64,000 bases of DNA from Calditrichia bacterium (lineage in GTDB: Bacteria; Calditrichota; Calditrichia; Calditrichales; J004), in contig JALXBH010000050.1 of assembly GCA_026991535.1 (NCBI GenBank), forward strand, positions 14,380 through 78,379, in the 5' to 3' direction. A program made the translations under genes and the position numbers. Below are positions 14,233-38,720 of this stretch, piece after piece. The notes beneath the pieces were generated by a model. That model was not told where the DNA came from and did not search any database. It was given only the letters and a program-made list of their open reading frames with translations. Position 1 is the first letter of the stretch. The number at the start of each line of letters is the position of its first letter.

Positions 14233-15552
14233 ATGATTCCGGGAATATTATACCGCCAACCCCGTCGACTTTGGCAAACCCTGCGTCCGCGACACAAACT
14301 GGAAGCCTTGTTCCTGGCCCTGGTTCTTTTGGCCGTGCCGGCCACGCGCGCCCATGCCCTTTTCGGTCAATGGCTGACTGCGGGCATGGACAGCGGCCGG
14401 CTGCTCTTTTTGATCTTGTGGAGTTTCCTCACCCTGTGGGTGTTCAGCCAATGGCCGGTTTTTCATTTTTTGGCGGGTCGGCAAAAAGTGGTTGCCCTTA
14501 CTGCAACCGCGCCGGCCACGCCCCGGCAGGCCCGGCAGATTCTTTTTTTTGTTAGTCTGAAATATCAATGGGTCCTTATTTTGCTTTTCGTCCCACTATG
14601 GGCGGCCTTTTGGGCCCATGCCCCGGCCAGGGGTCTGCTGTTGGCGGTGTTGGCCACCATAGGCGCCGCCCTGACCTGGCGTTCGGTTTTATATCTCTAT
14701 CTGCAATGGCAACCCGCACCCTGGTGGATTCCCTGGTTGACGGCGTTTATCCTTATGACCGCCGGTTTTTATGCCTATTTTTTACAATGGGAGGTCTTCT
14801 TCCTGGCTTTTTTTTTATTGGCTACCGCCCTGTATGTTTATTTTCACCGCTCCGCGGAAATAGACATGCTGGCCTTTTCCACCCCTGTCCGGCGCATCCC
14901 GGAGGCCGCGCAACGTTATGCGCGGGCTCAAAAGATGAAAATGCGTCCCGCTCCCCGGGGACCCCTGCGGTCCTGGATATTCAAGGAACGTCTGGCCCGG
15001 GAGCGGCATCGTGCTTTTCGCCTTTGGCGGCGGATTATGTTTTTATGGACGGCGGTAAGCTTTTTTGCCCTGGCTTTGAGTGCGCTTGCCGAGAGAAACC
15101 TGATTATCTTCGGCCTGTCGCTTTTATATGTGTGGGTTTATTTTGGCGCCGGGTTTAATGAAAAGTACCGCGACCCGGAACTTCCCTGGCTGATACAGGG
15201 GACGCCCCTGCGCCTGCGCGATTGGTGGCTGGCCCGTCTTTGGGTGGAAGGGGGCGACGCCCTGTGGGGACTGCTCCTGGCTGTCGGCGCCTGGCTGGCC
15301 GGTGGTCTTCCGGTGGACTTATTGTATATCTATACCGCTACCCTGATTGTTCTGTGGCTCATTTTTTTCGCCGCCGTGGTTAACTTTCAAATCATGTTTT
15401 ATGACAATGTACGCATGGCCGGTTATGCCTTTCATTTTACCATGCTGCTGCTGGGCATCATGATTTTTAACTATCGTTTGGTGGGGCCGTTGATCGCCCT
15501 GGCTTTAATGTTGTTTTTTAGCTATAAAAACTATAAATATATAAACAGATGA
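14233..15552 (+). CDS. Polytopic membrane protein of unknown family (putative permease partner of the downstream ABC ATPase)
   Basis: 439 aa with many hydrophobic segments. An ATGA stop/start overlap links it to the ABC ATPase gene. Confidence 0.55.
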   Translation: MIPGILYRQPRRLWQTLRPRHKLEALFLALVLLAVPATRAHALFGQWLTAGMDSGRLLFLILWSFLTLWVFSQWPVFHFLAGRQKVVALTATAPATPRQARQILFFVSLKYQWVLILLFVPLWAAFWAHAPARGLLLAVLATIGAALTWRSVLYLYLQWQPAPWWIPWLTAFILMTAGFYAYFLQWEVFFLAFFLLATALYVYFHRSAEIDMLAFSTPVRRIPEAAQRYARAQKMKMRPAPRGPLRSWIFKERLARERHRAFRLWRRIMFLWTAVSFFALALSALAERNLIIFGLSLLYVWVYFGAGFNEKYRDPELPWLIQGTPLRLRDWWLARLWVEGGDALWGLLLAVGAWLAGGLPVDLLYIYTATLIVLWLIFFAAVVNFQIMFYDNVRMAGYAFHFTMLLLGIMIFNYRLVGPLIALALMLFFSYKNYKYINR

Positions 15553-26469: not shown

Positions 26470-27075
26470 TTATTTTTTTTGCGCGCTTCCGGCATGGCGT
26501 TGGGCCAGTATCTCCTCGATCTCTTCCAGTTGGACGCCGCGCTGTTGCAGCAAAACCAAAAGGTGAAAAAGAAGATCGGCTGTTTCGTTTTTGAACAGCG
26601 CGTCGTTGTTGTCCATGGCCTCGATAATCAGTTCCGTGGCCTCCTCGCCCACCTTTTGGGCAATTTTGTTAACGCCCTTTTCAAACAGCGCGCTGGTATA
26701 GGATTGTGCGGATGGGTTTTTTTTCCTGTCGGCGATTATATCCTGCAATTTATATAAAAAACCCTTTGCCGAATGTTCATTAAAGCAGGTATCATTACCC
26801 GTGTGGCATACCGGTCCGGCGGGCCGGGCCTTTATCAACAGGGTATCCCCGTCGCAGTCGGCCACGATTTCACGGACGGTTAAAAAGTTACCGGAGGTTT
26901 CTCCCTTGGTCCATAGCCGTTTTTTCGAACGCGAATAAAAGGTAACCCGTCCTTCCCGTTCGGTTTTACTTAAAGCCTCCCGGTTCATATAACCCAGCAT
27001 CAGCACGCGCCCGTTGAGGGCATCCTGAATTATGGCCGGAACCAGACCATTGCCTTTGTCAAAATCTATACGCAT
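26470..27075 (-). CDS. hisI: Bifunctional phosphoribosyl-AMP cyclohydrolase / phosphoribosyl-ATP pyrophosphatase
   Basis: HisI N-terminus ([23 protein letters not shown]) fused to a HisE C-terminus ([20 protein letters not shown]). Confidence 0.9.
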
Positions 27076-27824
27076 CGTATGGCCACCTTTTTGGTTTGTA
27101 AATATTTTTTTAGTTCGGGGATGGCAATTTCGCCAAAGTGAAAAATACTGGCCGCCAGGGCGGCGTCGGCCCGTCCCTTTTTAAAGACGTCATAAAAATG
27201 GTGTATCGTGCCCGCCCCGCCGGATGCGATAACCGGAATACCCACCGTGTCCACCACGCGGGCGGTCAGCTCCACGGCAAAACCGTCCCGGGTGCCGTCG
27301 TTGGGGATGGCCGTCAGCATGATTTCCCCCGCGCCCCGTTGCCAGGCCTCCCGGGCCCAGGCCAGGGTATCCAGCGCTGTGGGTTGGCGCCCGCCGTGGG
27401 TAAACACCTTCCAGCGGCCATCGACAACATCCGTATCGATAGCCAGCACGACACATTGACTGCCAAAAGCTTCGGCCAATTGAGAAATAAGCGCCGGGTT
27501 TTTTACCGCAGCCGAGTTTACGCTAACCTTGTCGGCTCCGGCCTGTAGCAGCAGTTCCACGTCTGCGGTGGTGGCAATGCCGCCGCCAACCATAAAGGGG
27601 ATGTCAATGGCCCGCGAGATGCGTTCCACCAGGCGGGCCAGGGTTTTGCGCTTCTCTATGGTAGCCGTTATATCCAAAAAAACAAGCTCATCGGCCCCCT
27701 GTTCCGCGTAAAGACGGGCCAGTTCCACCGGATCGCCCGCATCGCGGATATCCACAAAGTTAACACCCTTAACCGTCCGTCCGTCCCGGATATCCAGGCA
27801 GGGGATAATACGTTTTTTTAACAT
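27066..27824 (-). CDS. hisF: Imidazole glycerol phosphate synthase cyclase subunit
   Basis: KRIIPCLDI..., [14 protein letters not shown] motifs. Confidence 0.95.
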
Positions 27825-27870
27825 GCTTCACCTTATTGTTCGGGCGGCGTTTATCCGCCGCGCTTTAAAC

Positions 27871-28584
27871 TTAAAATTCCCGTAATTCATCCAGGCGTAT
27901 GCGGTTTTCATACAGGGCCTTGCCGATAATGGCTCCCTCCAGCCCCATGTCGCGTAAGCGTCGCAGTTCCCCCAGGGTGCTGATGCCACCGCTGGCGATC
28001 AACTTTAGTTGCGGAGAGTTTTGTAGAATCCTTTTATAGAGATCAAAGGCCGGGCCCTCCAACATGCCGTCCCGGCCGACATCGGTGCAAATCACATAGC
28101 GCGCGCCCCGGCCGGCCAGGCTGTCGATAAAGCTCTCCACATCCAGTCCGGCGCTTTCCCGCCAGCCGTCGGTCATAATGCGTCCCTGGCGGGCGTCGGC
28201 GCCCAGGATAATTTTCTCCGCCGAATAGCGTTGCAGCCATTCCAGAAAAAGTTGCGGGTTCCTTGCGGCCACGCTGCCGGCGGTAACCTGGCACGCGCCG
28301 CATTCAAAGGCGATACGGACGTCCTTTTCGCTTTTTACGCCGCCGCCAAAGTCTATGCGCAGGCTGCTGCGGGCAGCCAGCCGTTCCAGCACCGGCCAAT
28401 TGACGATATGATTGCTTTTAGCGCCGTCCAGATCCACCACATGCAGATATTTAAGGCCGGCGTCTTCAAAAAGACGGGCCGCGTCAAGGGGGTCTTCGTT
28501 GTAAATTTTTTTCCGCTTGTAGTCGCCCTGGGTCAGGCGCACGCACTTTCCGTCAATAATGTCTATGGCGGGAATGATTCTCAT
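27871..28584 (-). CDS. hisA: ProFAR isomerase
   Basis: [29 protein letters not shown] motifs. Confidence 0.9.
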   Translation of the reverse strand: MRIIPAIDIIDGKCVRLTQGDYKRKKIYNEDPLDAARLFEDAGLKYLHVVDLDGAKSNHIVNWPVLERLAARSSLRIDFGGGVKSEKDVRIAFECGACQVTAGSVAARNPQLFLEWLQRYSAEKIILGADARQGRIMTDGWRESAGLDVESFIDSLAGRGARYVICTDVGRDGMLEGPAFDLYKRILQNSPQLKLIASGGISTLGELRRLRDMGLEGAIIGKALYENRIRLDELREF

Positions 28585-29159
28585 AGTTCTAAAAAATTCC
28601 TTAAAAGTTTTTGTCCGCCACCGGCCGATTTCTCGGGGTGGAACTGCACGCCGTAAAAGTTGTCCTTTTGCAGGGCGGCGCTAAATGGCAGCAGATATTC
28701 GCAAAGGGCCGCTGTGTGCGGACCGCTTTCCACATAGTAACTGTGAACAAAGTACATGTTTTCCGTTTCGCCTATACCGCGGAACAGTTCACCGCGCGGC
28801 TGTTGCAGATTATTCCAACCCATGTGGGGCACGTTGCCATCCGGCGGAAAGCGGCGGACTTTTTCGGGAAAAATACCCAGGCAGGGAGTATCGTTCTCCT
28901 CGGAAAAAGCGCACATCAACTGCATGCCCAGACATATGCCCAAAAAGGGCTGTTTCAGCGCGGTGATGGTTTCATCCAGTCCTCTTTCCCTAAGGTAGGC
29001 CATGGCGCCGGAAGCTTCGCCCACGCCGGGAAAGATCACTTTGTCCGCCTCATGGATAACGCGGGGTTCATCGCTCAGGATATATTCCGCGCCCAGGCGG
29101 TTCAGCGCGTTCATTACCGAGCGGGTGTTGCCGGCGTTGTATTTAATCAGGGCAATCAT
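28581..29159 (-). CDS. hisH: Imidazole glycerol phosphate synthase glutaminase subunit
   Basis: GATase1 motifs (PGVG, GICLGMQ, FHPEKS). Confidence 0.9.
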
Positions 29160-30244
29160 AAGCGGCCCTTGGTGCTGGGCACCCGTCCGTCGTGGGTGCG
29201 GGTTGCGGCCTGGCTCAGGGCACGGGCCCAGGCCTTGAAGACCGCCTCGATCTTGTGATGCTCATTTTCACCCTCCACGCTGATATTGAGGGTGCAACGC
29301 GCCGTGTCACAAAAGGATTTGAAAAAGTGGCTGAACATTTCCGTGGGCATTTCGCCGATCTTTTCCCGCCTGAATTCCGCCTGCCATACCAACCAGGGGC
29401 GTCCGCCAAAGTCCACCGCCACCTGCGCCAGGCTTTCGTCCATGGGCAGCAGAAAGCCATAGCGCCGCACGCCCTTTCGCGAGCCCAGCGCCTTGTCAAA
29501 GGCCTCACCCAGGGCCAGGCCGGTATCTTCAATGGTATGATGCTCGTCTACCCGCAGATCGCCCTTAACCGTTATTTCCAGGTCAAAGCCGCCGTGCCGG
29601 GCCAGTTGATCCAGCATATGGTCAAAAAATCCCAGTCCGGTGGCAATGCGCGCCTCGCCCGTGCCGTCAAGGTTAAGTGACAGGGCGATATCCGTTTCAC
29701 GCGTTGTCCGCCGGACTTCGGCCCGCCGCGGCCGCTGCTTAAGATAGCGGTATATTTCATCCCAGGAGACGCTGCACAGCTCGGCCTGTCCCTCCTGATC
29801 CCGGGTAATGCGGATGGCCCGGGCGCCCAGGTTGCGTGCCAGCTGTACGTCGCTTTCCCGGTCGCCGATAACGTAGGACGCGGCCAGGTCGTAATCGCCC
29901 TTCATATAATGGGTCAGCATGGCGGTTCCCGGTTTTCGGCCCGGGGCCTTGTCTCCGGGAAGGCTGCGGTCAATGAGGATTTCCCGGAAAACAACCCCCT
30001 CGCCGCGTAAAATTTCAAGCATCTTATTGTGGGCGGGCCAAAAGGTCTCCTCGGGGAAGGAGGCGCTGCCCAGGCCGTCCTGATTGGTGACCATGACCAG
30101 TTCATAGTCCAGTTCGCGGGCGATGCGCGCCAGGGCACTGATGGCGCCGGGCAAAAAGGAGAGTTTTTCATAGCTGTCTATCTGTTCATCCCGCGGTTCG
30201 GCAATGATGGTGCCGTCGCGGTCTATAAAAAGCACTTTTTTCAT
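29156..30244 (-). CDS. hisB: Bifunctional histidinol-phosphatase / imidazoleglycerol-phosphate dehydratase
   Basis: Start reset to [12 protein letters not shown] (ATGA overlap with the hisC stop). HAD DxDGT motif followed by IGPD motifs ([16 protein letters not shown]). Confidence 0.9.
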
Positions 30245-31272
30245 TGTAGGTTCCTTAAGGCGTTTAACAATTGTTCGTTTTCGCGGGCCGTGCCCACGGA
30301 GATACGCAGGCATCCGGGCACCATGGATGAACGGTTCCGCACCACCACCCCTTGCCGGGCCAGCTCCCTGTATATCCGTTCCGCGTCGGTAACGCGCACC
30401 AGCAAAAAATTGGCGTCAGAAGGAAAAACGTTAACCACGCAGGGCAGTTTGTGAAGTTCCCGCCGAAGGTTGTGGCGTTCCCGGATAAGTTCCCGGATTT
30501 CCCGGGCCCTGCCGCTAAGGCGATCCAGTTTGGACAGGGCCGCCTTTTGCGTTAGCCCGTTTACGTTGTAGGGCGGTTTTATCCTGTTCAGAATGTTAAT
30601 GACCCCGCTGTGGGCAAAGGCCATGCCCAGACGTATGCCAGCCATGCCCCAGGCCTTGCTGAAGGTCTGTAAAACCACCATGTTGGGTATCTCCTCCAGA
30701 CGCCCTAACATGCCCTGTGTATCGGCAAAGTCGATGTAGGCTTCGTCCACCACCACCAGGCCGTGGAAGCTTTGGGCCAGGGTAATGATTTGGCCTTCGG
30801 GTATCAGGTTGCCCGTAGGATTGTTGGGTGAGCATATAAAAAGCATTTTCAGTCGCTTATCCTTCAGCCGGGGCAGGAGGGATTCGGTATCGATGTGAAA
30901 ATTGTCATCCAAAGGCGATTCGATTACGGCAACGTCGTTTATGGCCGCGCTGACCGTATACATGCCATAGGTTGGGGGAAAGATCATGACGCTTTCCCGG
31001 CCCGGAACGCAAAAGGCGCGCAGCAGCAGGTCTATGGCTTCATCGCTGCCGTTGCCTAAAAAGATATTTTGCGGCTCCACATTTTTTATGGCGGCGATCT
31101 TTTTTTTCAGCGCCCGTTGCATGGGGTCGGGGTAGCGGTTTAGCCCGCTTTCATAGGGGCTCTCATTGGCGTCCAGCCAAACGCTGGCTTCGCCCTTAAA
31201 TTCATCCCGCGCCGAGCGGTAGGGCTTTAGCCGGCGTATATTTTCCCGGGTCAGTTTTTCCGGATCAAACAT
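30241..31272 (-). CDS. hisC: Histidinol-phosphate aminotransferase
   Basis: Class II aminotransferase. SPNNPTGN motif and PLP lysine motif [14 protein letters not shown]. Confidence 0.9.
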
Positions 31273-32542
31273 CTTTAATCTCCCGCAGACGTAGTGTTAC
31301 GGCATTCCTGTGCGCCAGAAGCTGCTCGGCTTCCGCCATCAGTTCGATGGCCGGGCCGATTTTTTTCAGACCCCGGGCGCTGATTTTTTGAAAGGTAATC
31401 ATTTTTACAAAGCTGTCCAGCGAAACCCCGCTGTATGCGGCGGCATGGCCGTTGGTGGGCAGGGTGTGGTTGGTGCCGCTGGCATAGTCTCCCGCGCTTT
31501 CGCAGCTATGGGAACCAATAAAAACGCTGCCCGCATTTACAACATCCTCCGCCAGTTCCCCGGCGCTGTCCGTGGCCAGAATCAAATGTTCCGGCGCATA
31601 GAGGTTGCTCAGCTCCAGCGCTTCCCGCAAATCATGCAGCAGGATCATTTTGCTGTGGGCCAGGGCGCTTGCGGCTGTTTCCCGGCGCGGCAGGAGGGTA
31701 AGCTGTTTCTCTATCTCCCGTTCCACCGCGTTTATCAACGAGGCAGAGGTGCATAAAAATATCACCTGGGAATCAGTTCCATGCTCGGCCTGGCTTAATA
31801 AGTCCGCCGCGATAAAGGCGGGGTTGCCTTCCCCGTCGCTGATGATCAGCACCTCGCTGGGACCCGCCGGCATATCGATGGCCGTGCCGGCGCTTTGCGC
31901 CATTTGCTTGGCCAGGGTCACATAGCGGTTGCCGGGGCCGAATATCTTGTCCACGCGCGGTACGCTTTCCGTGCCGTAACACATGGCGGCCACGGCCTGC
32001 GCACCACCGATGGTAAACAGCCGTTTTATGCCCAGGATGCGCGCCGTGTAAAGAATGGCCGGAGCAATGTGCCCATCGGCGTTGGGTGGCGTACAGACCA
32101 CAATCTCGCGGCAACCGGCCAAACGGGCGGGCACGGCCAGCATCAACAGGGTGGAAAAGAGGGGCGCGCTGCCGCCGGGGATGTACAAACCCACGCGCTC
32201 CACCGGTACGGCCCGCCGCCAGCAGAGCACGCCCGGCTGGGTTTCCACGGCTTTTTCCGTCCTTTTCTGGGCCCGGTGAAATTGTTCTATATTACTCCGG
32301 GCCATATCGATGGCCGCCCGCAGCGGGGGGGCAAGCTCCGTTGTTTCGGGAACTTCCCTCGACAGGGAAGAGAGGCGCGCGCCGTCAAACCGGCGGGTCA
32401 GCTCAAAAAGGGCCGCGTCTCCCTGTTGACGAACCTGGTTTAAAATATCCGCCACCCCGGAGCGAATATCCTTGTCCGAGGCAAAAGGCCGGGCGCAAAG
32501 ACCGGGCCACTCCTTTCGATCGGGATAGGTAATTATCTTCAT
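31265..32542 (-). CDS. hisD: Histidinol dehydrogenase
   Basis: Full-length HisD-like sequence (IPGGSAPLFSTLLM, SQAEHG, GDYASGTNHTLPT). Confidence 0.95.
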   Translation of the reverse strand: MKIITYPDRKEWPGLCARPFASDKDIRSGVADILNQVRQQGDAALFELTRRFDGARLSSLSREVPETTELAPPLRAAIDMARSNIEQFHRAQKRTEKAVETQPGVLCWRRAVPVERVGLYIPGGSAPLFSTLLMLAVPARLAGCREIVVCTPPNADGHIAPAILYTARILGIKRLFTIGGAQAVAAMCYGTESVPRVDKIFGPGNRYVTLAKQMAQSAGTAIDMPAGPSEVLIISDGEGNPAFIAADLLSQAEHGTDSQVIFLCTSASLINAVEREIEKQLTLLPRRETAASALAHSKMILLHDLREALELSNLYAPEHLILATDSAGELAEDVVNAGSVFIGSHSCESAGDYASGTNHTLPTNGHAAAYSGVSLDSFVKMITFQKISARGLKKIGPAIELMAEAEQLLAHRNAVTLRLREIKDV

Positions 32543-33393
32543 TATAAAAACATCTTTTCAATGGGACATACCAGAATTCCTTGCGCGCCCGCCCGGCGCA
32601 GACCGTCGATCACCTCCCAGAAGGTATCTTCCTTAACCACGCTGTGCACGCTGCTCCAGCCCTTTTCCGCCAGGGGCAGGATGGTCGGGCTTTTCATTCC
32701 CGGTAACAGGGCGCAGATCGTGTCCAGGGCCTCGTCCGGCGCGTTAAGCAAAATATACTTGTTTTGACGGGCATTTTGTACCGCCTGAATGCGGAAACGT
32801 AAGCGGCTGAGTATCGTTTGTTTTTCGCCCCGCAGGCCGGGGTTGCTGATCAGCACGGCCTCGCTGTGCAGAATAGTTTCCACCTCACGCAGGCCATTCA
32901 TCAGCAAGGTGCTGCCCGTGCTTACAATATCGCACACACCGTCGGCCAGGCCGATGCCCGGGGCTATTTCCACGCTGCCGCTGATCTCTTCTATGGCGGC
33001 GTTGATGCCCTGCCCGCGCAGGTAGTTATTCAAAATAACAGGGTAGGTGCTGGCAATTTTTTTGCCGTTAAACCAGGACGGGCCATTATAGCTTTCCTCG
33101 CGTCGCACAGCCAGGGAAAGGCGGCATTTACCAAAACCCAGCTTTTCCTCCACACGTACCTGCTTCTCCTTTTCCAGCACCACGTTCTCTCCCAAAATAC
33201 CCACGTCGGCCACGCCGTCGGCCACATATTGGGGGATATCATCATCCCGCAAATAAAGAACATCCACGGGAAAGTTACTGGCCTCGGCCTTCAGCTTACC
33301 GCCGTTGCTTATGCGGATGCCGCATTCCCTGAGCAGGCTCAGGCTTTGCTCGCTTAGCCGCCCCTTTTTTTGTATGGCTATCTTCAGTCGCAT
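32542..33393 (-). CDS. hisG: ATP phosphoribosyltransferase (long form)
   Basis: MRLKIAIQKKGRL N-terminus and a 283-aa length that includes the C-terminal regulatory domain. Shares 1 nt with the hisD start. Confidence 0.9.
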   Translation of the reverse strand: MRLKIAIQKKGRLSEQSLSLLRECGIRISNGGKLKAEASNFPVDVLYLRDDDIPQYVADGVADVGILGENVVLEKEKQVRVEEKLGFGKCRLSLAVRREESYNGPSWFNGKKIASTYPVILNNYLRGQGINAAIEEISGSVEIAPGIGLADGVCDIVSTGSTLLMNGLREVETILHSEAVLISNPGLRGEKQTILSRLRFRIQAVQNARQNKYILLNAPDEALDTICALLPGMKSPTILPLAEKGWSSVHSVVKEDTFWEVIDGLRRAGAQGILVCPIEKMFL

Positions 33394-33424
33394 CTCTCAT
33401 CCTTTCACTGTATAATTTTTGGGC

Positions 33425-33462
33425 AAAAAAAAACCCGTCCGAGGGTCATTCAGACGGGTTTT
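33425..33462 (-). terminator. Intrinsic terminator forming the his attenuator; it may also terminate the upstream permease gene
   Basis: Minus-strand RNA AAACCCGUCUG-AAUGACCCU-CGGACGGGUUU gives an 11-bp stem with one G.U pair, followed by a U run. It lies 32 nt upstream of the hisG ATG and 32 nt downstream of the leader ORF stop. Confidence 0.7.
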
Positions 33463-33493
33463 ATTAATGATTTTTATTTTCAGACACACAACA

Positions 33494-33568
33494 TCATTGC
33501 CAACTCGTATAAACGACCGGATAAACTATTACGGCATGATGATGGTGGTGAAATTGAATCTTTTTCAT
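33494..33568 (-). CDS. hisL: Histidine operon leader peptide (24 aa, MKKIQFHHHHHAVIVYPVVYTSWQ)
   Basis: Hand translation of the minus strand gives ATG AAA AAG ATT CAA TTT CAC CAC CAT CAT CAT GCC ... TGA. Five consecutive His codons span 33536-33550. The position between a promoter-like element and the terminator hairpin before hisG fits attenuation. Confidence 0.65.
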   Translation of the reverse strand: MKKIQFHHHHHAVIVYPVVYTSWQ

Positions 33569-33577
33569 AGCGCGCCC

Positions 33578-33605
33578 AATATAAGCGTGATTCCGGAATT
33601 TGCAA
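33578..33605 (-). promoter_or_regulatory. Candidate sigma-70-type promoter for the his leader
   Basis: Minus-strand TTGCAA (33600-33605), a 16-nt spacer, then TATATT (33578-33583). The -10 element ends 9 nt before the leader ATG, which implies a very short 5' UTR. Confidence 0.3.
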
Positions 33606-33628
33606 AATTTTTATTGCACGCCCGGATG

Positions 33629-34615
33629 CTAATGGTTTTGGCGAATCAGGAGATAGACAAAAAAAGGGCCGCCCAGAAAGGCGGTAACAATACCCACCGG
33701 TATTTCCGCCGGGGAGATGAGCATGCGGGCGATGGTATCGCTGAGGGTTAAAAAGAGGCCGCCCAGCATCAGGGCGCCCCAAAAAAGATACTTGTGGTTG
33801 GCGCCGAACATCATGCGGATCATATGGGGAATGACCAGCCCCACAAAGCCGATGGGTCCGGCCAGGGCCACGTAAAAACCGGCCAGCACCGCCCCGAAAA
33901 TAAGGGAATGTTTTTGCAACCGGTCCACATCAACCCCCTTGCTTTTGGCCAGTTCCTCGCCCGTGAGCAACACGTTAAAATGGCGGTAATGCCACAAAAA
34001 GTAAAGGGCGCCGGCAAGGGTCAGTCCGAGGGCGGTTAGCGGATAGGCCCAGCCGGCCACATCCAGGGCCCCCATTACCCAGCGGATCATTTTAAAGGTT
34101 TCGGTAAAGTCGGCCAGATAGTGCAACAACATATTCAGCGCCGAGAAGAAGAAACTAAAGGCTACCCCAAGCAAAATGATGTTATAGACGGAGGCCTGTT
34201 TCCAAAAGCGGGTAAGGTAAAATATCAGGCCGATGGCCAGCAGACTGCCGAGAATGGAAAAAAGAGCCACCGTGGATAAAAAACCGAAAGAGACGGCCAG
34301 TCCCAACTTAATGGCCAGTACCGCGCCCAGGGCCCCTCCGGAGGAGACCCCCAGTGTGTAGGGGGAGGCCAGGGCATTGCGCAGAACCACCTGATAGACA
34401 GCGCCCACCAGGGCCAGCCCCGCCCCCACGGCCCAGGCAAATATAACCCGCGGCAAACGAATATGCACAAGGATGAGGCGATCCAGGCCTTCGGGGTTAT
34501 CCAGGGCTTCCGTCAGGCTGATTTTCTGGCTGCCCCAAAAAGGGAAAAGGAAAACCAGCAATAAAAACAACAGCATCCATCCCGGAAAAAATCGTATAGA
34601 AAAAAAACGGCTCAT
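33629..34615 (-). CDS. FecCD/BtuC-family ABC permease (iron-siderophore/cobalamin type)
   Basis: 328-aa protein with about 9-10 TM segments and FecCD-type sequence (RLPRVIFAWAVGAGLALVGAVYQ, TAFLGGPFFVYLL). Confidence 0.85.
   Translation of the reverse strand: MSRFFSIRFFPGWMLLFLLLVFLFPFWGSQKISLTEALDNPEGLDRLILVHIRLPRVIFAWAVGAGLALVGAVYQVVLRNALASPYTLGVSSGGALGAVLAIKLGLAVSFGFLSTVALFSILGSLLAIGLIFYLTRFWKQASVYNIILLGVAFSFFFSALNMLLHYLADFTETFKMIRWVMGALDVAGWAYPLTALGLTLAGALYFLWHYRHFNVLLTGEELAKSKGVDVDRLQKHSLIFGAVLAGFYVALAGPIGFVGLVIPHMIRMMFGANHKYLFWGALMLGGLFLTLSDTIARMLISPAEIPVGIVTAFLGGPFFVYLLIRQNH

Positions 34616-38647: not shown

Positions 38648-38720
<73 letters not shown>

Follow-up and report, generated by a model that had tools for sequence, protein, structure and literature searches.

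In Escherichia coli and Salmonella the his operon is preceded by the leader hisL, which comprises a short open reading frame (ORF) with tandem His codons, an anti-antiterminator to which these codons contribute, an antiterminator, and a terminator with a U tract, and the next gene is hisG of the operon hisGDC[NB]HAF[IE]. The same arrangement was found upstream of hisG on the minus strand of the window, which is the whole stretch of 64,000 nt that was analyzed (positions 14,380 to 78,379 of contig JALXBH010000050.1, assembly GCA_026991535.1, Calditrichia bacterium), and the same kinetic behavior was seen in the folding analysis. Conservation and modeled RNA structures indicate that the element is most likely a functional, histidine-responsive, ribosome-mediated (leader-peptide) transcription attenuator of the his operon. 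In contrast to these similarities, the helices, the arm sequences, a candidate promoter of the Bacteroidota type, and the lack of a Shine-Dalgarno sequence distinguish the element from the enterobacterial hisL.

A member of the same subfamily has already been described. The element THC0290_N_0824 upstream of hisG in Flavobacterium psychrophilum was called leader-peptide attenuation (Guérin et al., 2021, ISME Commun, PMC9723704, Table S7, SI D9). It has a mapped transcription start site (TSS), a 129-nt 5′-transcript that ends at the terminator, and condition-dependent read-through, and his expression in this species was highest in minimal medium (PMC9723704). The published entry contains a minimum-energy fold only and no antiterminator model (PMC9723704). 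It is located behind a TAnnTTTG promoter; the leader reads MSLNQLHHHHFHICSQAKC and can be aligned with those of the window and of subfamily A at the His run, the so-called D segment, the inner hairpin, and the terminator AAACCCGU(C/U)UGA...ACGGG. However, its leader has 19 codons, while that of the window has 24 codons with five uninterrupted His codons, the D segments differ (UUUAUACGAG in the window versus CUCAGGCGAA), and so do the terminator loops, into which the predicted antiterminator of the window extends. Judged by its sequence, the attenuator of the window belongs to a class that is found across Bacteroidota and that is already annotated in Flavobacterium, so the class is not new. 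In the main texts of the literature that was searched no his attenuators of Bacteroidota were found; the annotation sits in the supplement of PMC9723704. A preliminary description of the window had assumed that leader-peptide attenuators outside Proteobacteria are known mainly from comparative predictions, which has to be revised in view of the mapped TSS and the condition-dependent read-through of the F. psychrophilum member.

Two further systems outside Proteobacteria are similar in principle. The Bacteroid-trp leader (RF01692) is a predicted cis-regulatory RNA of the leader-peptide type upstream of an amino acid operon of Bacteroidetes (Weinberg et al., 2010, PMC2864571), and it has been mapped in F. 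psychrophilum (PMC9723704). In contrast to the window element, it contains Trp codons, precedes the trp operon and has its own Rfam family; the window sequence is unrelated and did not match it. Candidate his attenuators of Firmicutes, which have His-rich leader peptides and terminator/antiterminator hairpins, are missed by the Rfam model RF00514 (Ashniev et al., 2022, PMC9413887); they stem from a different phylum, have different sequences, and are predictions from sequence comparison. As to Rfam itself, the best match of the window element was His_leader (RF00514), which was matched over the full model length with 38.0 bits and an E-value of 2.6e-4. The preliminary description had pointed to this model, and while it was indeed the best match, 38 bits are lower than the gathering score of 49, and therefore membership in RF00514 was ruled out. 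Among ten relatives only one had a match to RF00514 (31.5 bits, E 0.29), and none of 20 relatives reached the gathering score of any Rfam family; the proteobacterial model generally fails to recognize the leaders of Bacteroidota. On the folding model the element works like hisL, but it does not qualify for membership in RF00514, and the class of Bacteroidota his leaders has no Rfam family. Therefore, these leaders are missed in genome annotation. The abstract of a 2004 article by Vitreschak and colleagues reportedly lists candidate attenuators in Bacteroidetes/Chlorobi.

Results

A leader ORF with five tandem His codons and an intrinsic terminator precede hisG

The coordinates of all features are compiled in Table 1. 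Translation of the minus strand verified the leader ORF that had been read in the preliminary description. It consists of 24 codons and a stop codon, reads ATG AAA AAG ATT CAA TTT CAC CAC CAT CAT CAT GCC ... TGA, and its translation is MKKIQFHHHHHAVIVYPVVYTSWQ. It includes five His codons in tandem, CAC CAC CAT CAT CAT, and its distance to hisG (ORF 33393..32542, minus strand, ATG at 33393) is 100 nt, i.e., tandem codons for the end-product amino acid are located upstream of the cognate operon. In the whole 64-kb window this leader was the sole intergenic short ORF with a run of amino acid codons and a terminator. Other leader-peptide-like ORFs and terminators in the window were rejected as chance matches, which occurred within coding regions only.

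The leader ORF is followed by an intrinsic terminator that consists of the 5′-arm AAAACCCGUCUGA (33462..33450), the loop AUGACCC (33449..33443), the 3′-arm UCGGACGGGUUUU (33442..33430), and a tract of nine U residues (33433..33425). The hairpin and the U run had been noted before, with a stem of 11 bp; the terminator scan gave a stem of 13 pairs with a 7-nt loop (33462..33430), which is made up of the 9-bp core CCCGUCUGA/UCGGACGGG and four A-U pairs. The spacings of 32 nt between the leader stop codon and the hairpin and of 32 nt between the end of the U run and the hisG ATG agreed with the coordinates.

The leader is conserved upstream of hisG in Bacteroidota

The sample of related loci (L001-L166) comprised 80 hisG loci from species-representative genomes, 80 from metagenomes, and six contigs with an identical HisG; all named loci are from Bacteroidota, and one record is labeled Neomarinimicrobiota. 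For 139 loci a sequence of 330 nt in front of hisG was available, and in these ORFs of 8-45 codons with at least three His codons within seven codons were scored as leaders. Such a His-rich ORF was present upstream of hisG in 132 of the 139 loci, compared with 4 of 139 reverse complements and 8 of 1390 shuffled sequences, and an intrinsic terminator followed the leader in 134 of 141 relatives. Conservation of the His run and of the hairpin, which had been proposed as a check in the preliminary description, was thus found for both. In one locus (L079) the terminator of the subfamily that is called A below (AACCCGTCTGAGCATACCAGGCGGGTTTTT) is located about 100 nt upstream of hisG, directly after a coding region and without a leader ORF, which looks like a leader loss with retention of the hairpin. 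In Chitinophaga silvisoli another terminator was observed about 1.9 kb upstream of hisG (L025:1077-1158), together with weak, sub-threshold matches to a Thr_leader-like and a small-RNA-like Rfam family; this site could represent a further attenuator or just a terminator.

The layout permease-leader-hisG is identical in the six contigs with an identical HisG (L081-L086). Only three positions differ from the window in the 247 nt upstream of hisG: 33636 belongs to the permease gene, 33557 to the leader, and 33464 to the linker, and neither of the latter two is located in a helix. The change at 33557 (T to A) is the sole single nucleotide polymorphism inside the leader ORF, and it is synonymous (Ile). 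The species of the window was also present in several assemblies, among them a hydrothermal-vent metagenome assembly and two metagenome-assembled genomes at NCBI (GCA_011375365.1 and GCA_026993405.1). Closer relatives were sought in scans of genomes and metagenomes, and the best HisG identity outside the species was 73% (L087). The leader of this relative, MNTTQRHHHHFHAHFIAQASWN, has an intermediate form.

The leaders of Bacteroidota comprise at least three sequence types with different terminator arms (e.g., L042:2836-2953, L013, and L005), and in each of them a segment of the leader ORF mimics the terminator 3′-arm. Subfamily A, which was defined in this analysis and has no Rfam entry, contains mostly Bacteroidales-type records with peptides ending in HHHHFHTCSQAR and the terminator AAACCCGUCUGAG...CAGGCGGGUUU. 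Subfamily B is of the Chitinophagales type, its peptides end with HHHHFLPxG, and its terminator arms are GGGCUUACC/GGUAAGCCC, while Ekhidna and flavobacterial forms make up the third group. Sequence comparison places the window in subfamily A as a divergent member: a good alignment was obtained between the stop codon and the terminator, while the leader is longer and has a different 3′-half. The conserved terminator arms of subfamily A, AAACCCGUCUGA and CAG(G/A)CGGGUUU, were found in the window, and its 5′-arm is identical to the consensus core of the subfamily. In a 58-sequence alignment of relatives (A1), which was used for all helix statistics, the arms were near-invariant and 94.2% paired.

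The covariance model R1 was built from 55 leaders of subfamily A, with exclusion of the window, and has a length of 119. On the 64-kb window it yielded a single significant match, at 33568..33428 (48.5 bits, E 2.8e-7), which covered model positions 1-119 of 119, while the next match had an E-value of at least 0.6. A weak match was also seen on the plus strand at 33409-33461 (15.9 bits, E 0.64). The terminator hairpin is flanked by an A run and, at its opposite end, by a U run, and it is symmetric enough to allow, in principle, termination in both directions.

These results bear on two explanations that do without attenuation by a leader peptide. The hairpin could simply terminate transcription of the permease operon upstream of it, and the His-rich ORF could have arisen by chance in the spacer. 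In favor of this view, the permease gene is read in the same direction, and 60 nt separate its end from the leader ATG. However, leader and terminator are present in more than 90% of the Bacteroidota hisG loci whatever the upstream gene is: the upstream neighbor of leader loci was co-directional in 40 cases, divergent in 23 and missing in 22, and at least 23 loci with leader and terminator thus have a divergent neighbor. The arrangement is independent of the orientation of the neighbor, and therefore the hairpin cannot simply be assigned to the upstream gene as its terminator. In addition, model R1 matches the whole element, and no promoter motif was found in the 32 nt of the window between the U tract and the hisG ATG; therefore, his transcription must cross the hairpin. 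Coincidence can be regarded as effectively refuted. Alternatively, the leader RNA itself could be the sensor of histidine or tRNA-His and act like a riboswitch, a T-box, or a protein-binding RNA, and the ORF would be irrelevant. T-boxes do control his genes in many Firmicutes (PMC9413887). However, no match to a T-box or a riboswitch was found in the window at permissive thresholds and none in 20 relatives, and three subfamilies that otherwise differ in their RNA sequences have all kept the reading frame, the ATG, and the His run, so that direct sensing is very improbable for this leader.

Predicted pairing of the terminator 5′-arm depends on the position of the ribosome

As attenuation is decided during RNA synthesis, the nascent RNA was folded instead of the full transcript. 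The RNA was cut just before the terminator 3′-arm, the ribosome was placed on it codon by codon, and the mean pairing probability of the terminator 5′-arm was used as readout. The 5′-arm pairing was 0.22-0.24 with the ribosome at the start and 0.22-0.23 without a ribosome. It was 0.68 when the A site was placed within codons 4-13, a range that comprises the five His codons, and it was again 0.22 when the ribosome was close to the stop codon and thereby covered the 5′-strand of the antiterminator and the AAUGAU motif. In the folding model the window thus shows the classical three-state logic of an attenuator, and mutually exclusive terminator and antiterminator structures, for which a folding check had been suggested, were obtained in dependence on the ribosome position.

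When the last of the His codons occupied the A site, one extended antiterminator structure of -20.3 kcal/mol was predicted downstream of the ribosome, and it sequesters both the terminator loop and the complete 5′-arm. It consists of GGUCGUUUA (33518..33510) paired with UGAAUGACC (33452..33444), the pairings ACG/CGU and GUU/AAC, and the inner hairpin. When the upstream part was replaced by 1000 dinucleotide shuffles, the mean energy was -12.0±2.4 kcal/mol; three of them reached the energy of the window, 52 reached the arm pairing, and none reached both. The motifs AAUGAU, AUCAUU, and AAUGA had been noted previously as possible pairing partners, and all three were present at the sites given for them. 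The helix AAUGAU/AUCAUU formed in every fold and has a conserved counterpart in relatives. In contrast, the pairing of AUCAUU with AAUGA of the terminator loop was not recovered; AAUGA (33450..33446) comprises the last stem pair and part of the loop, and its best partner was GGUCGUUUA. In the minimum-energy folds of the untranslated state segment A, which contains the His codons, and segment B in the stop-codon region form a long hairpin, which encloses the small C:D hairpin, an alternative partner for the antiterminator 5′-strand. This topology was also seen in L042, L138, L113, L102, and L150.

The validated hisL of E. coli was used as a positive control. Its full-length fold kept the terminator, and in the nascent RNA the 5′-arm pairing was 0.57 for the His stall versus 0.25 without a ribosome; the equilibrium model fails to reproduce the stop-codon state of this leader. 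Plain minimum-energy folds of the window, with and without a ribosome footprint on the His codons, also always kept the terminator, and the absence of any antiterminator had been considered. This reading was dropped after the nascent-RNA folds and the similar behavior of the E. coli hisL. The same three states were recovered in the relatives: the median 5′-arm pairing without ribosome, at the His stall, and at the stop codon was 0.29, 0.73, and 0.20 in subfamily A, 0.52, 0.73, and 0.33 in subfamily B, and 0.26, 0.63, and 0.19 in the third group. The energies of the antiterminator state were about 6-8 kcal/mol below those of shuffled sequences, and for 102 of 131 leaders at most one of 30 shuffles reached the observed value. 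Taken together, His leader-peptide attenuators are predicted to precede hisG in more than 90% of the sampled Bacteroidota loci, in at least three subfamilies with the same logic.

The predicted antiterminator helix is conserved in subfamily A and diverged in the window

In subfamily A segment D comprises the S-Q-A-R codons, CUCAGGCGAG. It mimics the terminator 3′-arm CAGGCGGG with one A·C mismatch and can pair with the 5′-arm CCCGUCUGAG, which is segment E. The inner hairpin GUGAUAU/AUAUCAU is located between D and E and abuts or overlaps the leader stop codon. Alternatively, D can pair with segment C (CUUGC), which closely follows the His codons, and the His codons can pair with GUGAUAUG. The D:E helix together with the inner hairpin was 84.1% paired in the alignment, versus 31-46% when the partners were slid by 1-3 columns, and the part of the antiterminator that is in the family register was 85% paired. 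The covariation of D:E and the inner hairpin was 0.131 versus 0.102±0.006, a value that was reached by none of 500 shuffles, and six pairs were changed on both sides. In L087 a G-C pair of the D:E antiterminator is replaced by A-U. The inner hairpin helix was 82.9% paired with changes on both sides at four of the seven pairs, and the window has AAUGAU/AUCAUU at this place. Nine consecutive nucleotides of D, including wobble positions, were at least 90% conserved. The conservation of the wobble positions points to a constraint at the RNA level, and the conserved peptide tails that precede the stop codon (FHTCSQAR and FLPxG) appear to be set by RNA pairing and to be by-products rather than to reflect a function of the peptide. 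An 8-mer identical to CUCAGGCGAG was noticed in the his leader of E. coli, where UCAGGCGA (within ...GUCUUUCAGGCGAUGUGUG...) follows about 13 nt after the His run, while in subfamily A it follows after about 14 nt; the pairing roles differ. This shared 8-mer, the sub-threshold RF00514 matches, and the operon order could reflect common ancestry or coincidence.

The window deviates from the subfamily in segment D. The motif CUCAGGCGAG itself is not kept, and the segment is UUUAUACGAG, which still pairs with the terminator 5′-arm in the family register; eight of ten positions pair with E, compared with nine of ten in the consensus. The outermost D:E pair has been changed on both sides from C-G to U-A. 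The 3′-half of the antiterminator 5′-strand of the window lies in the register of the family D segment. In contrast, the 9-bp extension into the terminator loop, i.e., the pairing of UGAAUGACC with GGUCGUUUA, is lineage-specific and absent in the relatives, which have different loops. This extension looks like a lineage-specific compensation for the diverged D in the predicted structures, and the specific antiterminator pairing is put forward for this lineage with moderate confidence.

Proposed mechanism of his operon control

Based on the predicted structures, the following mechanism is proposed. Transcription would start from a Bacteroidota-type promoter just upstream, and a ribosome would translate the 24-codon leader behind the moving RNA polymerase. 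When charged tRNA-His is scarce, the ribosome would stall on the five His codons (33550..33536), and the region of the stop codon would be freed from pairing with the His codons. The antiterminator 5′-strand (33518..33502) could then pair with the terminator 5′-arm and loop (33460..33444), a pairing that would be nucleated by the AAUGAU/AUCAUU hairpin. The antiterminator would be finished before the synthesis of the terminator 3′-arm, and the polymerase would read through into hisG. When histidine is ample, the ribosome would reach the UGA (33496..33494) and cover both AAUGAU and the 5′-strand of the antiterminator. With the 5′-arm left free, the 13-bp terminator with its nine U residues would form, and transcription would halt 32 nt before hisG. 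Without translation the hairpin of the His codons with the stop-codon region and the C:D hairpin would hold the antiterminator strand, and the terminator would form, too. The conservation, the ribosome-dependent structures, and the best Rfam match argue for the reading as attenuation of the enterobacterial hisL type, which had already been put forward in the preliminary description.

It was also considered that translation of the leader acts on hisG post-transcriptionally, i.e., via mRNA stability, translational coupling, or the accessibility of the start site, and that the hairpin is mainly a structural or processing element. Some attenuators indeed make use of a structure that sequesters the ribosome-binding site in place of a terminator (PMC9413887), and translation initiation in Bacteroidota is unusual and occurs without a Shine-Dalgarno sequence (PMC9723704). 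In contrast to this view, the window has a canonical 13-bp stem that is directly followed by nine U residues, this hairpin ends 32 nt before the hisG ATG and has no overlap with the start region, and the 5′-transcript of F. psychrophilum has its end at the homologous hairpin, with read-through that is condition-dependent (PMC9723704). Post-transcriptional control is thus regarded as quite improbable, and termination within the leader is the preferred reading.

Several observations weigh against attenuation in the window. The full-length terminated state is more stable than the antiterminated state (-28.5 versus -20.3 kcal/mol), and therefore the switch must be kinetic. Segment D of the window has diverged from the family consensus, and the 9-bp extension has no support from covariation, as the six contigs of the same species are identical there and the nearest other relative has a HisG identity of 73%. 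The homolog of the C:D hairpin, CUUGC/GCGAG, was 84% paired in the 58 relatives, but its covariation was not significant, and the C:D hairpin was kept as a predicted element only. The covariation within the family is limited by the high sequence conservation, and the shuffle control keeps the phylogenetic relatedness. The candidate promoter matches the consensus with one mismatch, and the leader mRNA would be near-leaderless and has no Shine-Dalgarno sequence. Lastly, a coupling of transcription and translation is not known from Bacteroidota.

Some of these points would fit to an attenuator that is decaying or only weakly responsive, in which the divergent D is no longer effective, the terminator is constitutive and leaky, and control is exerted by feedback inhibition of the long-form HisG. 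Segment D differs from the near-invariant family motif at four of eight core positions and, when paired as in the family, has one extra mismatch. The terminated state is favored by 8 kcal/mol over the antiterminated one, support from comparison with relatives is missing for the lineage-specific extension, and the HisG of the window is a long form with a C-terminal regulatory domain (TIGR03455). However, the sequestration of the 5′-arm at the His stall, 0.68, is close to the family median of 0.73, and the energy of the antiterminator is an outlier in comparison with shuffled sequences (3 of 1000). Both the terminator and the ORF with its five His codons are intact, the sole polymorphism in the ORF is synonymous, and the validated attenuator of E. 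coli has the same thermodynamic imbalance. A decayed state is considered to be unlikely, and a functional attenuator remains the preferred reading.

It is tempting to speculate that the vent lineage has rewired its antiterminator, i.e., that D has lost part of the ancestral pairing and the new 9-bp helix GGUCGUUUA/UGAAUGACC invades the loop, and that the leader is translated in a near-leaderless mode without a Shine-Dalgarno sequence; this is a possible, but tentative interpretation of the models. If it was true, this class, which is absent from Rfam, would be a defined system to test the coupling of transcription and translation and classical attenuation in Bacteroidota. Bacteroidota do not use Shine-Dalgarno-led initiation and have a different promoter type; therefore, a validated attenuator would be direct evidence of such coupling there. 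For the window itself the element is ordinary and represents the regulatory element that is expected, and it provides a testable model of his operon control in uncultured vent Bacteroidota at the level of coordinates, with the stall site, the antiterminator strands, and the terminator.

Table 1. Predicted elements of the his leader and its surroundings on the minus strand of the window.
Feature	Coordinates	Strand	Basis
Intrinsic terminator	33425..33462	-	Terminator scan (13 pairs); hairpin -18.4 kcal/mol; conserved in relatives
Antiterminator 3′-strand AAC-C-CGU-C-UGAAUGACC (terminator 5′-arm and loop)	33444..33460	-	Nascent-RNA folds
Antiterminator inner hairpin AAUGAU (33498..33493, overlaps UGA)/AUCAUU (33471..33466)	33466..33498	-	All folds
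Anti-antiterminator of the untranslated state, A (33553..33532, His codons) with B (33504..33478, stop region)	33478..33553	-	Minimum-energy folds
Leader ORF (hisL-like)	33494..33568	-	Translation of the window; His-rich short ORF kept in 132/139 related loci
C:D hairpin CCGGUCGU-UUAU-ACGA-G-UUGG	33500..33520	-	Folds; terminated states
Antiterminator 5′-strand GGUCGUUUA-U-ACG-A-GUU	33502..33518	-	Nascent-RNA fold with ribosome on His codons; partner 33460..33444
Regulatory codons, predicted ribosome stall site at scarce His-tRNA	33536..33550	-	Sequence; relatives have 3-7 His per 7-codon span
Candidate Bacteroidota-type promoter	33576..33606	-	-33 TTTG (33606..33603), 19-nt spacer, -7 box TATATTGG (33583..33576)
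Putative regulated operon hisG-hisD-hisC-hisB(fused)-hisH-hisA-hisF-hisIE	26470..33393	-	NCBIfam equivalog matches for all eight genes

A candidate promoter close to the leader start codon

The -7 box of the candidate promoter, TATATTGG, has one mismatch to the consensus TAnnTTTG and ends 7 nt before the leader ATG. The match to the consensus and the spacing in the relatives suggest that it is the promoter of the leader, and a scan for sigma-70 promoters also flagged 33606..33578. As the mapped TSS of F. psychrophilum is located 6 nt after the box, transcription in the window would start about 1-3 nt before the leader ATG, which would result in a near-leaderless leader mRNA. An alternative -7 box, AAATTTTG (33610..33603), also has one mismatch and is located 34 nt before the leader ATG; in this case the 5′-untranslated region would have a length of about 29 nt.

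An exact TAnnTTTG motif was present at most 70 nt upstream of the leader ATG in 124 of 141 relatives, in 19 of them at a distance of 7 nt, an enrichment that was judged from the low expected frequency of the motif and not from a measured control. In the relatives the motif often ended 4-10 nt before the leader ATG (13 at 4 nt and 19 at 7 nt), with a second mode at 16-19 nt. Boxes 4-10 nt from the ATG indicate that the mRNAs of the leader peptides may be leaderless or near-leaderless in many relatives.

The his operon and neighboring genes

The order hisG-D-C-B(fused)-H-A-F-IE had been described as E. coli-like in a genome with features of the FCB group (Fibrobacteres, Chlorobi, Bacteroidetes). 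The order was verified with NCBIfam; compact E. coli-like his operons of this kind are common in Bacteroidetes (PMC8305728). The co-directional gene upstream of the leader, 34615..33629 on the minus strand, encodes a FecCD/BtuC-type permease according to its NCBIfam match. A second terminator-like site, CCGCCTTTCTGGGCGG followed by CCCTTTTTTT, was seen at 33669-33684 on the minus strand inside the 3′-end of this ORF and probably represents a chance match. Within the 64-kb window the gathering score of an Rfam family was reached only by a tRNA gene at 38648-38720 on the plus strand.

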